Below are positions 5,088-10,477 of a DNA stretch of 37,577 nt, piece after piece; position 1 is the stretch's first letter, and every line of letters begins with the position of its first letter. A program made the position numbers and the translations under genes. Below the pieces are notes generated by a model. It made no database searches. It saw only the letters and a list, made by a program, of their open reading frames with translations, and had not been told where the DNA came from. Source of the DNA: Porpidia crustulata. Taxonomy: Eukaryota. The stretch is from assembly GCA_964255105.1 (NCBI GenBank), contig CAXUWE010000006.1, forward strand, positions 1 through 37,577, read 5' to 3'.

Positions 5088-5500
5088 CGCAAAATGCTCT
5101 TCAATCAAGGCCCTATATCTCCCCCTCGAGGACAAGACATGCTGGATGGCCTGTTTTCACGGAGCTAATCATCACTTAATCTTCTGCTACAACTACAACT
5201 ACTGCTTCGACTACTAATTCCCCTTCCCCATCCCACTTTTCGCACCTCACATATACCCGAATGCTGCCCTCCTCTACTTTACAACTTCCTCAAACATTCT
5301 TCCAACGTTAATACCCGTCTACCAGCCAACCTTAATCGTCCTTCCTCTCTTGCCTTGGAAAGCTGATGATCTGATTGCCTCGATTTACTATCAACACTTC
5401 TGTCCCTTCTTGACGGTTCAGCGACCCGGCCACACTATTTGCTCCATTGCAGGCAGAGAAAGATCGCTGGCCCTTCTACGGAGATCTTCTCATACCTGAG

Positions 5501-5559
5501 GTACCCAAATTGCTGGATCAATAGTCTTACTGTCTAGACACTGACTCGTCCATAAGCAG
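5501..5559 (+). other. Probable 5'-UTR intron of the C2H2 transcription factor gene
   Basis: GAG|GTACCC donor at 5501, CTGAC branch near 5541 and AAGCAG acceptor ending 5559, about 60 nt before the ATG at 5621. Confidence 0.5.
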
Positions 5560-5620
5560 AACGAGATATAACGCTGAAGCCCAACCATTGCCCCAAGCCC
5601 CCGTACCACGGCCCACGGGC

Positions 5621-8354
5621 ATGGCCTTAGTCCACGACAGCTTCAGTGACTTTGTACTATTTCCACGAAACCCATCCTCCTACCTGGATATGCTGGATGG
5701 GAGAGGTGAGAGCGGTTACGACGGGCTACACTCCAACGGCCCAACAACCTCCAATATGCATCAACATTTTTCAGATCTGGCAGCCACTACCTATGATCCT
5801 TACCCACCCGGCTTGGCTTACTCGTCCGAATCTCCGCCCTATTACAGTGCCCCTCAATTTGCTCTCGACGCACCTAAAGTAGACGCGAAGCAGCCAGCAA
5901 GGCGTTGGACTCCATCAGGATCGCCCTCGCCATCTGTATCCCAGTCGTACGATCACCCACCTTCAGCAGTATCATCGGTCTCAGGGGCATCTGGACACAG
6001 CACGGCATCTTCTGTCGTAGGGTCGCCTTATTCTCATCCCACCCAAAGTCTACCAGGCCTGGAACCTTGGGCCGACTCTCACCTAGGTTTGGGCATCGCA
6101 GCAGGAGCATTTCATGGTGATCGCTTTGGGCATGACATCTTCCCAAGCACGAACATTGACAATGATCTCATATTCGAAGACGGCAAATACCCCAGCAGCT
6201 TTGTTGGTAAGTCCGGGAACATTTCTCCATCATCAATTTCCACTAGTCACGTCAAATTTTCTGCAATTTCTTCGCCAAAATTTGTCTTTGCTTTCCGCGC
6301 TCCGCAATTAGCTCTCGACACTTCCATCGCCGCTCGTGAAGATACCATAGACACCATATTGGAACAAGTCAACAGCAGCCTCGATGCCACTTCCCAGCAG
6401 GCCTCTCCAGCTTCAGCAATATCGAAGGCCTCTCCTATCGCTTTTCGAACGACGTATCCAACCGATTCTACTCAACATGCAGCAGGCTCGTTCAAGCCAC
6501 CCACCACACCAGCTTCAGCCATGTCTTCCTTTGCTCCGAGTGGTTTTTCTCCTCCAGCTTCCCGTCAGCCTAATACTCGTAGATACTCAACGACTACCTA
6601 TAGTGAAATGAATGTGCCGAGAAGCCCACCAGCGTTCTCGAATCGATTTCACCCGTACGGCCGGTCGACGCCGCCTCTCCTTTCTCAGAATCAATTTCAT
6701 AATAGTCCTTCACAGCCTCCCTTCTTTAGTCAAAGCAGTGGCAGATATATTGCTCCACTCGAGTCATCTTGTCGGTTTTCCTGGAATCATCTCCTTTCCA
6801 TTTCATTTCTCAACACTCATACTTTCCTTCCTCCGATTATTGTTATTAGGAATTTAGCACAACCGAAACTAATGTGTTGGTGCCACAGATCCGTCCCTCA
6901 TTCAGCCCTTTGACGTACCTCTAGCGCACAATGGCTCTGCGGCACCCTACGTGGGGCCAATCCATGCCTTCCAACTCCCTTCGCAGACCTTCCAACCTCC
7001 TTCACCAGCGTCATCAGATGCGTCGAGTCAAGACTCGCACCGACCGGTGACTACCCGAATCAGGCATGGCACAACGTCTCCTTATCTACGGACAACATCC
7101 TACCAACCATACCCACAGGGATCGGAAGCCCGCAGACTCTCCATCGCTTCGAGTTTCTCACGTACTTCGCAGGACAGCCCACGATCGACTAGTATTGGAT
7201 TTGACGAAGACGGAAGGGAACGGGGTCGATGTCCAAATATCGACTGCGGCCGACTTTTCAAGGACCTCAAGGCTCATATGCTTACACATCAATCGGAACG
7301 GCCCGAGAAATGTCCGATTGTGACCTGTGAGTATCACCATAAAGGATTTGCTCGCAAGTACGACAAGAACCGACACACCCTAACCCACTACAAAGGTACT
7401 ATGGTGTGCGGCTTTTGCCCTGGGTCAGGCTCGGCTGCCGAAAAGAGTTTCAATCGTGCAGACGTCTTCAAGCGTCATCTAACATCGGTGCACGGGGTAG
7501 AGCAAACCCCCCCTAACGCCCGCAAGAAGAGTCCAACTGCCGCCTCTGCGAAACAGGTCTTAAACAGCTCTGCCGACGTCGCCGGCAGATGCTCGACTTG
7601 CTCGGCTATGTTCAACAATGCGCAAGAATTCTACGAGCACTTGGACGACTGTGTCCTCCGTGTCGTCCAGCAAGAAGAGCCTAGCGAAGCTATCAATGAG
7701 CAACATTTAGCTGGCGTAGCCAACGACCTAGCAGTTCGGCAGACCTTGGAGCGTCACATGCTTCCCGTAGACCCCGACTACGCTTCTCAAGACGTCCTAA
7801 CTTTTGGTGAGGATGAAGTTGTCTGCGAAGTCAATGATGAAGGCTCCGGAGCGTTGGCTTCCTCCAAGGCCAGCACACGTTCTGGTAAAGGCTCTGCGAA
7901 GACCTCAATACGCAATGGATGTTGACAATCAGTACATCCCCGAGGTGTCGCTTCGCACATTGGGGGTGGCGCTTCCATCACAAAACTCAACCGCACGGCA
8001 GTGGCTTCCAAAGGTCGTGGTATGACTCTCTCTAAAGGAGGCGTACCTCTACTTGGTAAGGGCCGGAAGAAGAGAAAGCATTACCCGACAGCATGGGGAT
8101 GCTCCACAGAAAAGATGAAGATGAAGAAACGAGTCTTGTGTGTCTATGACGGGTCACGCCGTCTTCTGAAGGATGACATGATGCTTAACAGCGAGTTTGA
8201 AGTCCGATTGCGCCTTGGAAATGGTACGTCCTACGTCACAGATTTGGACGTCGAGACTGTCAAGCGAGCGGAAGCCTTTCACGACGCGACTGAGGAAGAG
8301 AAAGGCCCTTGGATTCAAGGAGATGATGTGGACATCGGGGAATTGATGTCATAA
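5621..8354 (+). CDS. C2H2 zinc-finger transcription factor; exon 1 5621-6770 (or 5621-6206), exon 2 from 6889; in-frame TGA at 7923-7925 followed by open frame to TAA at 8354
   Basis: N-terminal SDFVLFP and an S/P-rich region; zinc fingers CPNIDC..HMLTH, CPIVTC..HTLTH, CGFC..HLTSVH and CSTC..HLDDC. Acceptor CTAAT..CACAG at 6888 joins in phase 1. The C-terminal block KGRKKRKHYP...KKRVLCVYDGSRRLLKDDMML...YVTDLDVETVKRAE is in the same frame as the fingers. Confidence 0.85.
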
Positions 8355-8738
8355 AGGCCTAACAATGATGTGCTTGTACTTATATTAATACTGTATCTCG
8401 CTTAGCATGGGCGGAGCTTTGACTTCTTTGAGCGCATCGTTCTGGACTTGGATTGGATCTTGATGACCTCATGGCCGTCACGAAGGATACGGGATTTGAA
8501 TCCTGAATGCAGGTATCGAAATGCCTTTGGTGTGATCACAGGGTTGGCTGTGTTGCAGCTCACGGTTCACTTTATTGAAATCGGGGATAATTCCTGGTAG
8601 AGGTGCTGGTCACTAGCCAGCGGTCATTCTTCTAGATAGTCGAACAAAGAACACCCAAAGTAGTGGACATTGGCCGTCTGCCTCTTAGTGATTTAACACA
8701 TTGACACTTCCAAGCATCCGCGCATCGAGCCTTCAATA

Positions 8739-8790
8739 TTCGCGTCAAGCTCGCGTCAAATTCGTGTCAAGCGTACGCGGAGAGTCGCGT
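8739..8790 (+). promoter_or_regulatory. Cluster of CGCG-core (MCB/SCB-like) elements in the PRI2 promoter
   Basis: TTCGCGTCAAG, CTCGCGTCAAA and TTCGTGTCAAG in tandem, then ACGCGG and TCGCGT, 65-115 nt upstream of a replication gene. Confidence 0.6.
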
Positions 8791-8853
8791 TAGCAATGCC
8801 TCAACAGCTCACTGTTTGGACGTCTCATATGACAACTGCCAGAGTGGTGTAAA

Positions 8854-10477
8854 ATGATCCGGCAAGGACGCAACCGTATTGATCCCAAGCGGAGAAGTAC
8901 TGTCGACTACAAGAAGAAGCAATTCGCGGCACCACTATATAAGCAGCAAGAGTATCCTCATCGCTTGAATTCCTACGAAACTCCACCAACCGCGGAGATT
9001 ACGTTGGAGCAATTCGAAGGATGGGCGATCGATCGACTGAGAAGTACTGCTCAATATATAATAGACCTTTGTGCTCCTGTATTGATGCTCGATAGTTCTC
9101 GCCGAGATCGAAGCATGCTCCTTTCGAAACAAGTCACCAGCCGAGACCACGGCGCACATGCTACCTCTTCTGCAGAAATGGCTTCCTCTCTCCTCGAATA
9201 CCTCGTCCACTGCTGGTTATAGTGAAGAGAGGCTCAAATTAGAGCGACAGAAAGACCACTATTCGCATTTCATACTTCGCCTTGCTTTCTCCTCGACTGA
9301 AGATTTACGACGACGCTTTGCGCGCATCGAAGCTACTCTATTCAAGCTTCGCTTCCAAAATGACGATGCTCGAGAACGGCAAGCCTTCGTGGAGTCTTTG
9401 CATCTGGACTGGGAGGTTGCGTCCGACGAGGAAAAGCAGAGGCTGGCGGTGGGCCTTCTCAACGCAACACCCGGATTGAAGCGGCACGAGGTGGACGAAG
9501 GCGGTTGGTTTAAAGTGAACTTCGAGACTGTCCCCGAGCTCGTCGAAAGTCGCAGGGTATTCCTGAAAGCTGGCATGGCCTATGTGCCAGCAAAAGAGCA
9601 GATGAGTATGGTACTTGCTGGCTTCAGCGCAAAACTCGACCAAGGTTTAGAGGTACGTAAACGCACTAACATGATCGAAGTTGAAAGGAGTGCGCTAAGC
9701 TCGACCTTGATACAGCTTACCGCTCGGGCCCTACCTCGTCTTGACGAAGACGATCGCCTCACCCCTATTCTTAACCACCTCTCGAAAAACTTTTCGACTC
9801 CCGATTCCACGATCTCAGATTCAGACACTGCACTGCCTGGCGCGCCCATAAATGCCACTTCCATCGATCCTTTATCACAACACTTTCCACTCTGCATGCG
9901 GAATCTACACCTAACGCTGCGGAAAAATAGCCATCTCAAGCATTTCGGTCGGCTCCAGTACACTCTCTTCCTCAAAGGAATTGGCCTGTCCATGGAGGAC
10001 TGTTTAATATTTTGGCGCCAGTCTCTCAAATTCAAGACCGATGACGAGTTCAACAAAGACTACAGATATAATATTCGCCATAATTATGGCGACGTTGGTG
10101 GCGATGCTACTAGACGGGGCCGAGGCTATTCCCCATTCTCGTGCCAGAAGATCTTGACCGAACATCCCCCAGGGAACGGAGAGAGTCACGGCTGCCCATA
10201 CCGCCATTTCAGCGTCGATAATCTCACATCGATATTGCAACAGACAGGTGTCAATGATCGAGACGTATTGCGAGGTATTAAGGAAGATGTAGAGAAAAAG
10301 AGATACCATATCGCGTGCAACCGAGTCTTCGAGTGGGCGCACAAGGGTGTTATTCGCAGGGTGAAGGAAGATGGGTCATGGGGAGTTGCCGACCTGGATA
10401 CTATCGTTCACCCGAACACGTACTTCAGAAGGAGCTATCTCTTGACACAGAAGTCGAGGGACGGGCAGTCACAATGA
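8854..10477 (+). CDS. PRI2: DNA primase large subunit; exons 8854-9043, 9096-9652, 9716-10477
   Basis: YETPPTAEITLEQFEGWAIDRLR|ILAEIE, KDHYSHFILRLAF, HLKHFGRLQYTLFLKGIGL, and the Fe-S cluster cysteines in PLCM, SCQKI, HGCPY and IACNR. Introns 9044-9095 and 9653-9715. Confidence 0.96.

Follow-up and report, generated by a model that had tools for sequence, protein, structure and literature searches.

In a 37,577-nucleotide (nt) stretch of the Porpidia crustulata genome (contig CAXUWE010000006.1 of assembly GCA_964255105.1, positions 1 to 37,577; hereafter the window), a gene predicted to encode a ZfpA-type C2H2 transcription factor is interrupted by an in-frame UGA, and this codon very probably acts as a site of programmed stop-codon readthrough of the tobacco mosaic virus (TMV) type, with a 3′ hairpin, that would give rise to a finger-only and a full-length isoform. 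Coordinates are window positions throughout, and all gene features lie on the + strand. As a first-pass annotation made from the sequence alone had described, the zinc-finger open reading frame (ORF) ends in frame at TGA 7923–7925, and the same frame then stays open for another 142 codons (7926–8351) until a TAA at 8352–8354, which would terminate the long isoform. The six bases directly following the internal stop, CAA TCA (7926–7931), fit the stop-CAR-YYA hexanucleotide of the type I readthrough signal. A separately assembled contig of 14,945 nt from sequencing run X1 (depth 10.8) showed 0 differences from the window over positions 5200–8800, including the TGA, indicating that the stop is not peculiar to the window's assembly; X1 is possibly the window's own source sample.

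The 142-codon extension consists of a disordered basic linker carrying the sequence KGRKKRK (8058–8078), followed by a conserved core predicted to be ZfpA_C (approximately 8061–8315). Both the basic patch and the ordered block KKRVLCVYDGSRRLLKDDMML...YVTDLDVETVKRAE named in the first-pass annotation are present. In an alignment of 28 sequences (the window and 27 homologues), 30 columns of the extension are invariant. Since homologues align on both sides of the stop with such invariant columns, the extension is, on the evidence of the alignment, the real C-terminal domain of the family, severed from the zinc fingers by the stop, and the proposed split of a C2H2 factor from its C-terminal domain holds, the detached part being the conserved region predicted as ZfpA_C. 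Coverage by homologues on both sides of the stop, at identities of up to 70%, together with the 30 invariant downstream columns, takes the pattern far beyond chance. An AlphaFold2 model of the extension built from 30 sequences had a mean predicted local distance difference test score (pLDDT) of 60.3, with residues 1–60 disordered and residues 65–125 forming a small beta-plus-helix unit at a pLDDT of ~ 75. In a structure search over 48,161 chains, the top match to this model reached a Z of 3.2, and no fold was assigned from it. Protein-atlas clusters for the extension were C2-like only, with scores of 0.83–0.86 that fell below the 0.9 line, and were not used.

Conservation of the stop and its 3′ context was followed in orthologous loci. 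A scan of metagenome contigs returned 332 stretches encoding relatives, the best 80 of which were analysed by anchoring each locus on two conserved peptides, QEFYEHLDD... upstream of the stop and KGRKKRK... downstream of it. Two of the 80 loci, L074 and L076, are cut off before both anchors are covered; the remaining 78 contain both, always in one reading frame. Exactly one in-frame stop lies between the anchors in 65 of these loci and none in the other 13. Where present, the stop is always at the homologous place, within the pattern ...RSGKGxIKSxKxx(stop)Q[S/L]xHPRGV.... Together with the window, the stop-bearing set amounts to 66 loci with 49 distinct 93-nt contexts; grouping of the stop-bearing loci by nucleotide identity gave 32 clusters at a threshold of 85% and 21 at 80%. 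Across all 49 contexts the sequence T-G-A-C-A-A-Y-Y-A is invariant, while the codons immediately upstream vary freely, so the conservation of TGA-CARYYA in related fungi for which the first-pass annotation had proposed to look was found. A sense codon at this place in close relatives, which would have marked the TGA as a private nonsense allele, was not seen in the closest relatives (L001 and L002) or in the other stop-bearing relatives, all of which keep TGA. The idea that related fungal proteins are continuous here stood in part only: 13 of the 78 loci have no stop, but 65 carry it and several annotated proteins from stop-bearing groups are gapped at this place. Loci L008 and L021 differ from L007 and L009 by 62 nt in length and are otherwise 95–97% identical.

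The invariant codons following the stop are minority choices in these genes. The codon after CAA is TCA in 24 of the 49 contexts, TTA in 16 and CTA in 9, while in the same genes CAA makes up 44.6% of glutamine codons, TTA and CTA together 10.2% of leucine codons and TCA 15.6% of serine codons, and A occupies the third position in 15.6% of codons overall. This indicates that the constraint acts on the nucleotides rather than on the amino acids. The internal stop is followed by C in 49/49 contexts, compared to only 7/47 for the terminal stop of the same ORFs, so that the C-A-A after the internal stop is special to it. The terminal stop itself is TGA in 35 of 47 contexts, indicating that UGA is an ordinary terminator in these fungi. 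Downstream of the internal stop, the ratio of nonsynonymous to synonymous substitution rates (dN/dS) was 0.07–0.14 at a dS of 0.75–2.0 in the six of nine pairs for which dS could be estimated, and the same comparison gave 0.05–0.10 for the upstream finger exon. A dN/dS near 0.1 while dS is near 1 indicates that the extension has been translated in lineages that have borne the stop for a long time.

Folding of the region 3′ of the stop with RNAalifold predicted a conserved RNA stem-loop of 13 pairs (CAUCCCCGA.GGUG / CAC.A.UUGGGGGUG; 7935–7968 in the window) with its onset 9 nt past the stop. The input consisted of 36 of 46 distinct 90-nt segments, leaving out L009, which is near-identical to L007 and L008, and nine segments lacking the CAUCCCC block. 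In the 36-sequence alignment 97% of cells were paired, compared to 42–59% when the partners were slid against each other. Compensatory changes were present at three pairs, one of which is GC in 15 sequences, AU in 11 and GU in 7. The alignment holds 19 double-change cells, and both this count and the covariation score were reached by 0 of 500 shuffles, a figure that does not amount to a probability given that the sequences are related. The 3′ arm of the hairpin also fixes GGG, the rarest glycine codon in these genes (9.1%). When folded singly, the nine omitted segments also produced hairpins at this offset, but with quite different sequences: five carry GGUGGUGC/GCACCACC, three carry AACUCCCG/CGGGAGUU and L067 has yet another. 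Across lineages the onset lies 6–9 nt past the stop. Of 45 distinct 66-nt windows at the stop, 36 contain a single hairpin with six or more pairs that begins at position 8–13, as opposed to 651 of 6134 control windows drawn from the same genes (10.6%), and in eight of the nine remaining stop windows the fold obtained was the same stem with extra outer pairs. The mean minimum free energy was − 24.2 kcal/mol at the stop and − 14.5 kcal/mol (standard deviation 5.2) in the 6134 controls. A search of Rfam gave no match at E ≤ 1 within 7800–8100. In run X3 (record 10), from the same study as X1 and from another organism, a 37,771-nt contig matches window positions 7921–7969 with 5 differences in 49 bases. 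Between 7506 and 8053 this is the sole island of nucleotide likeness in that contig, the flanks being too diverged to align, and it coincides with the stop and the hairpin.

Several features of type I readthrough were seen in this gene family: an in-frame stop followed by CAR-YYA, a conserved context, an in-frame extension under purifying selection and a 3′ structure, the last being accessory rather than obligatory. Stop-CARYYA is a consensus readthrough signal that acts on UGA as well, and 3′ structures starting ~ 8 nt past the stop are common stimulators of readthrough (PMC5397192 and PMC3542737). We infer programmed readthrough because the cassette combines the stop, the CARYYA motif and a downstream structure. 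The leading idea of the first-pass annotation, that short and long isoforms are made by programmed readthrough at a UGA in a CAR-YYA context, is supported by the conservation of the site among orthologues.

Evidence on mature mRNA came from contigs of relatives that resemble spliced transcripts. L019 (3,093 nt) aligned with the genomic locus L020 in three blocks at 94% identity and lacks an exact 110-nt GT..AG intron of L020, yet keeps the TGA. A second gap between the two, of ~ 105 nt (L020 ~ 1814–1916, ends approximate), begins with GTAAGC upstream of the coding region and is probably a 5′ untranslated region intron. L024 has the same gaps as L019 and keeps the TGA, while L022 and L023 use an alternative donor and keep it as well. 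L054 is identical to genomic L056 (100%) except for the absence of two exact GT..AG introns of 111 and 295 nt, and again the TGA is kept; L053 was also compared. Because confirmed introns are missing from them, these five contigs represent spliced transcripts, coming from two lineages. It is thus in the spliced mRNA of relatives that the UGA was seen to be retained. A form from which the stop region had been removed was found in none of the 80 loci.

These contigs bear directly on the alternative that the TGA lies inside a short in-frame intron, constitutively spliced or regulated, with retention giving the short protein and splicing the long one. The letters of the 48-nt candidate noted in the first-pass annotation (7885–7932) are all there as described, namely a GT at 7885, a TTGAC branch-like motif (7922–7926) and a CAG at 7930–7932, all in frame, with a weak donor and about 7 nt from the branch A to the AG. 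Several public homologue models are also gapped at this spot, as though a small intron had been predicted, an AG directly follows the YYA codon in 14 of the 49 contexts, and other GT..AG pairs might be considered. We nevertheless judged that this stretch is not an intron. The GT falls within the Gly-Lys-Gly codons GGT AAA GGC, the donor GTAAAG (7885–7890) fails the GTRNGY pattern and no in-frame GTRNGY candidate occurs in the window; among the 49 contexts such candidates occur in only eight, at non-homologous places. The closest relatives, L001 and L002, read GGC AAG GGC and so have no donor, and the acceptor AG is absent from 35 of the 49 contexts. The branch-like A stands only 7 nt from the AG, protein-level conservation reaches the stop from either side, and the five spliced contigs keep the region. 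Nor would an intron lead one to expect the invariant TGA-CAA-YYA or the constant offset of the hairpin. Splicing is on these grounds an improbable explanation of the cassette.

Slightly less probable still is adenosine-to-inosine (A-to-I) editing of the mRNA from UGA to UGG, as for CHE1 or PUK1 in Fusarium, which would make production of the long protein dependent on active editing. In favour of this option, such sites typically combine a stop and a downstream ORF that are both conserved, and A-to-I editing in fungi corrects conserved premature stops in transcription-factor genes (PMC11169179; PMC13123824) and causes the same kind of annotation problem (PMC11169179). Known fungal A-to-I sites strongly prefer U at position − 1 and a hairpin loop (PMC11169179), but the base before the A is G in 49/49 contexts here and only 2 of 48 local folds place the A in a hairpin loop. 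In addition, no TAG occurs at this place, and the mRNA-like contigs have A rather than G at the third base of the stop, as a consensus in which low-level editing would be invisible. Editing also leaves the invariant CAA-YYA and the hairpin 9 nt downstream unexplained, and this part of the first-pass annotation was set aside.

Very improbable is plain termination, whereby only the short protein is made and the downstream ORF is a relic or is translated separately, or the TGA is a private mutation or a sequencing error. The window by itself shows just a stop-interrupted ORF, as this explanation would have it. A private mutation does not agree with a stop common to 65 of 78 loci, a relic does not agree with the substitution rates given above, by which the extension is translated, and a sequencing error does not agree with the independent X1 assembly. 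Separate initiation has no conserved start, because the first methionine of the extension (in GMT) is leucine (GLT) in many loci. Ascomycota are not known to possess the selenocysteine trait. Decoding of the UGA as selenocysteine or by a reassigned code, although UGA is the selenocysteine codon and a conserved in-frame UGA is typical of selenoproteins, is hardly credible given that UGA terminates the same ORFs in 35 of 47 contexts, that most fungi are without this trait (PMC10778597) and that no cysteine aligns with the stop in the stop-less lineages.

Under programmed readthrough, the cassette on the mRNA would comprise the UGA, then CAA-YYA, then the hairpin 6–9 nt past the stop. Most ribosomes would probably terminate at UGA 7923–7925, producing a protein of 728 residues (540 with an alternative splice described below) that has the zinc fingers and is devoid of both the ZfpA_C domain and the basic KGRKKRK patch. 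The remaining fraction would read the UGA by means of a near-cognate tRNA and go on for 142 codons, resulting in the full-length factor of 871 (or 683) residues. In yeast, the residue inserted upon UGA readthrough is Trp, Cys or Arg, and one of these would presumably be inserted here. The efficiency of the event would set how much of the long form is made and might be regulated, the isoforms may differ in function, and the short form may have a role of its own. Termination at the internal stop leaves a long 3′ region and might also link the gene to mRNA decay.

To our knowledge, conserved programmed readthrough in fungal cellular genes is known mainly as short peroxisomal-targeting extensions. 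In the glycolytic enzymes of Ustilago and Aspergillus (Stiebler et al. 2014, as cited in 10.1101/2022.12.06.519325), the extensions are a few residues ending in a type 1 peroxisomal targeting signal and the motif is UGA-CUA. Like the ZfpA-type gene, these are cellular fungal genes with C next to the UGA, and conserved readthrough yields, or in the ZfpA-type gene would yield, two isoforms. In the ZfpA-type gene, readthrough at CAA-YYA with a hairpin would instead add a 142-residue folded domain to a transcription factor. Type I (TMV-type) viral readthrough has the same hexanucleotide after the stop (CAA UUA, CAA UCA or CAA CUA), and the nearest viral case is the coat-protein extension of benyviruses, UAG-CAA-UUA with a compact stem-loop (PMC3542737). 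Common to both are the compact hairpin ~ 8–9 nt downstream and, as predicted for the fungal gene, a C-terminally extended product in the same frame. Unlike the type I viral cases, which mostly use UAG, the putative site described here belongs to a cellular fungal gene and always uses UGA.

Among animal transcription factors, a conserved readthrough extension alters the activity of Drosophila Drifter/Vvl (PMC8417969) and of the human VDR (PMC5868278). Those cases concern another kingdom, other motifs and other domains, and the animal proteins normally end at the annotated stop, whereas in the ZfpA-type gene the extension is the ancestral C-terminal domain and is constitutive in stop-less lineages. 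In Fusarium, CHE1 is likewise a C2H2 gene split by a conserved in-frame stop, where annotation truncates the protein or invents a small intron (PMC11169179). It differs in encoding 310 amino acids, in having its fingers downstream of the stop, in the stop being a TAG with U at − 1 in a hairpin loop, in being conserved only among close Fusarium species and in its mechanism, which is editing (PMC11169179). The possibility that CHE1 is the same gene was considered and rejected, as it is a different gene (PMC11169179).

The case was not found described in the full texts searched, whose coverage is thin for subscription journals, and no paper among them joins 'ZfpA' and 'readthrough'. On present sequence comparisons, this would be a cellular, deeply conserved readthrough site of viral type in a fungal transcription factor. 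A viral-type signal and hairpin would here stand between the DNA-binding part and the 142-residue C-terminal domain of a widely conserved transcription factor, with the cassette retained across very divergent filamentous ascomycetes. The gene family offers a natural and easily tested model for readthrough by CARYYA plus structure in fungi. There is also a consequence for annotation. Public gene models P0003, P0005, P0012, P0014, P0029 and P0105, from stop-bearing groups, have gaps exactly over the stop region, and public proteins skip the stop, e.g., as ...RSGK/GVH... and ...WPA/HPQGV.... From these alignments this looks like a systematic annotation error in which models either truncate the protein or invent a small intron.

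Several observations weigh against the readthrough interpretation. The window has both the AG at 7931–7932 and the GT at 7885, unlike the 35 contexts lacking that acceptor, and minor splicing in the window's species is possible. The spliced contigs belong to two Dothideomycete-like lineages, with proteins no closer to that of the window than ~ 57–59% identity, and the window's own organism is represented in this analysis by DNA alone. Thirteen loci manage without the stop, so the short isoform must be dispensable in some lineages. With regard to the hairpin, the shuffle statistics overstate independence as the loci are mutually related, and the conserved peptide HPRGV..HVGGG could lie behind part of its conservation. 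Folded by itself, the hairpin of the window does not exceed shuffled sequence in stability (z = − 0.6), so the case for it comes from comparison across loci.

In the 13 stop-less loci the cassette is missing in its entirety. In two of them, L010 and L015, which are near the stop-bearing loci L011 and L016, the stretch is 24 nt shorter and is without the stop, the CAA-YYA and the 5′ arm of the hairpin. This type represents a natural long-form-only allele in a close relative of stop-bearing lichen-fungus loci. Judged by nearest named homologues, the stop-bearing loci are close to Lecanoromycetes and Dothideomycetes, and most of the stop-less loci to Chaetothyriales and Verrucariales. In a tree of the finger region, built from 42 rows (a representative of each 85% cluster and ten of the stop-less loci) and rooted by midpoint only, the deepest starred split (100/98) has stop-bearing loci on either side. 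The stop/no-stop label needs five changes on this tree, of which the starred branches force at least three. One old origin of the stop with several later losses fits as the economical history, but because the root is only a midpoint, this does not amount to proof of a single origin.

A broader proposal, which we offer tentatively and regard as rather more doubtful than well founded when taken as a whole, is that the ancient UGA-CAA-YYA and hairpin (+ 9) cassette makes two forms of a regulator of hyphal development, with termination efficiency setting their ratio. The finger-only form may then act as a competitor or remain cytoplasmic, and the stop would respond to stress or growth state rather than being a fixed leak. 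By nearest named homologues, such a switch would be older than the split between the Dothideomycete-like and Lecanoromycete-like lineages and would have been lost in several lineages through deletion of the cassette. In Aspergillus fumigatus, ZfpA (AFUB_082490) regulates hyphal branching, septation, chitin and antifungal susceptibility (PMC10174577, PMC10434176). The cassette suggests that translation termination may be a level of control for the family that bears the name of this Aspergillus regulator of hyphal form and antifungal response. The common ground predicted between that protein and the window gene is the ZfpA_C domain family together with C2H2 fingers, the two being likened by family. 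A search of the two ZfpA papers (PMC10174577, PMC10434176) turned up no mention of a stop codon, intron, isoform or readthrough.

Assignment of the window gene to this family was made through its homologues. A search with the translation, carrying X at the stop, yielded 6427 candidates, of which 1922 proteins matched at E ≤ 0.001. The 120 homologues listed are 59–74% identical to the query, and most span it on both sides of the stop. The precomputed Pfam family PF28332, named ZfpA_C, is present on 120 of these 120, which points to a ZfpA-type C2H2 transcription factor as the product of the window gene. The local Pfam copy matched no family in the extension, whose ZfpA_C label is carried over from the homologues. 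The closest named proteins among the matches listed are from lichen-forming Teloschistales, at ~ 70% identity, which by itself would make a lecanoromycete the probable source of the window, and the C2H2 family with ZfpA_C extends across Pezizomycotina. An NsdC-like identity, also considered, was dropped once the family name ZfpA_C emerged. The zinc-finger region (approximately 7230–7652) holds three C2H2-like fingers and one C2HC-like finger, and the Cys/His columns of these four finger-like units are invariant in 28 sequences (the window and 27 of the 120 listed homologues). The Pfam zf-C2H2 match to the region, at E = 0.029, was below the cut-off, as was a similarly weak match to Rua1_C.

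By homology, the gene was modeled with two exons. Exon 1 (5621–6770) encodes a low-complexity, Ser/Pro-rich N-terminal region in which Pfam detected no family; the ATG at 5621 is the inferred start codon, placed by the likeness of the predicted N-terminus to those of homologues (MA..SDFVLFPR), and the end of the exon was set by homology to the GT..AG intron that distinguishes L020 from L019. The intron that follows (6771–6888, 118 nt, GTCGGT ... ACTAAT ... CACAG) is homologous to L020 2889–2998, the 110-nt intron GTCGGT..TGTAG that is precisely missing from L019, and the joined exons read ...LESS-Y-PSLIQ, matching homologues. Exon 2 runs from 6889 to the internal stop (6889–7922) and contains the zinc-finger region and an acidic linker; the stop-to-stop ORF with the fingers spans 6873–7925. 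The predicted products are the 728- and 871-residue proteins given above, or 540 and 683 residues with the alternative splice.

This alternative splice uses a 5′ splice site GTAAGT at 6207–6212, the homologous donor of which is the one used in the mRNA-like contigs L022 and L023 (L020 2457, GTGAGT; same acceptor), whereas L019 and L024 use the downstream donor. Joining donor 6207 to the acceptor at 6888 would give ...SFVD-PSLIQ..., in frame and 188 residues shorter, and the FVD-PSLIQ junction also occurs in many annotated homologues. The alternative 5′ splice site is conserved, with both donors leading to one acceptor in frame and ~ 180–190 residues gained or lost in the N-terminal half, which is of low complexity. 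Both splice forms (...SFVD-PSLIQ and ...S-Y-PSLIQ) are found among the mRNA-like contigs of one relative lineage, as well as among public protein models.

Downstream of the ZfpA-type gene, a neighboring ORF at 9086–10474 on the + strand encodes the large subunit of the eukaryotic DNA primase (Pfam DNA_primase_lrg, E = 2e-80), and upstream exons of this primase gene seem to lie around 8833–9222.

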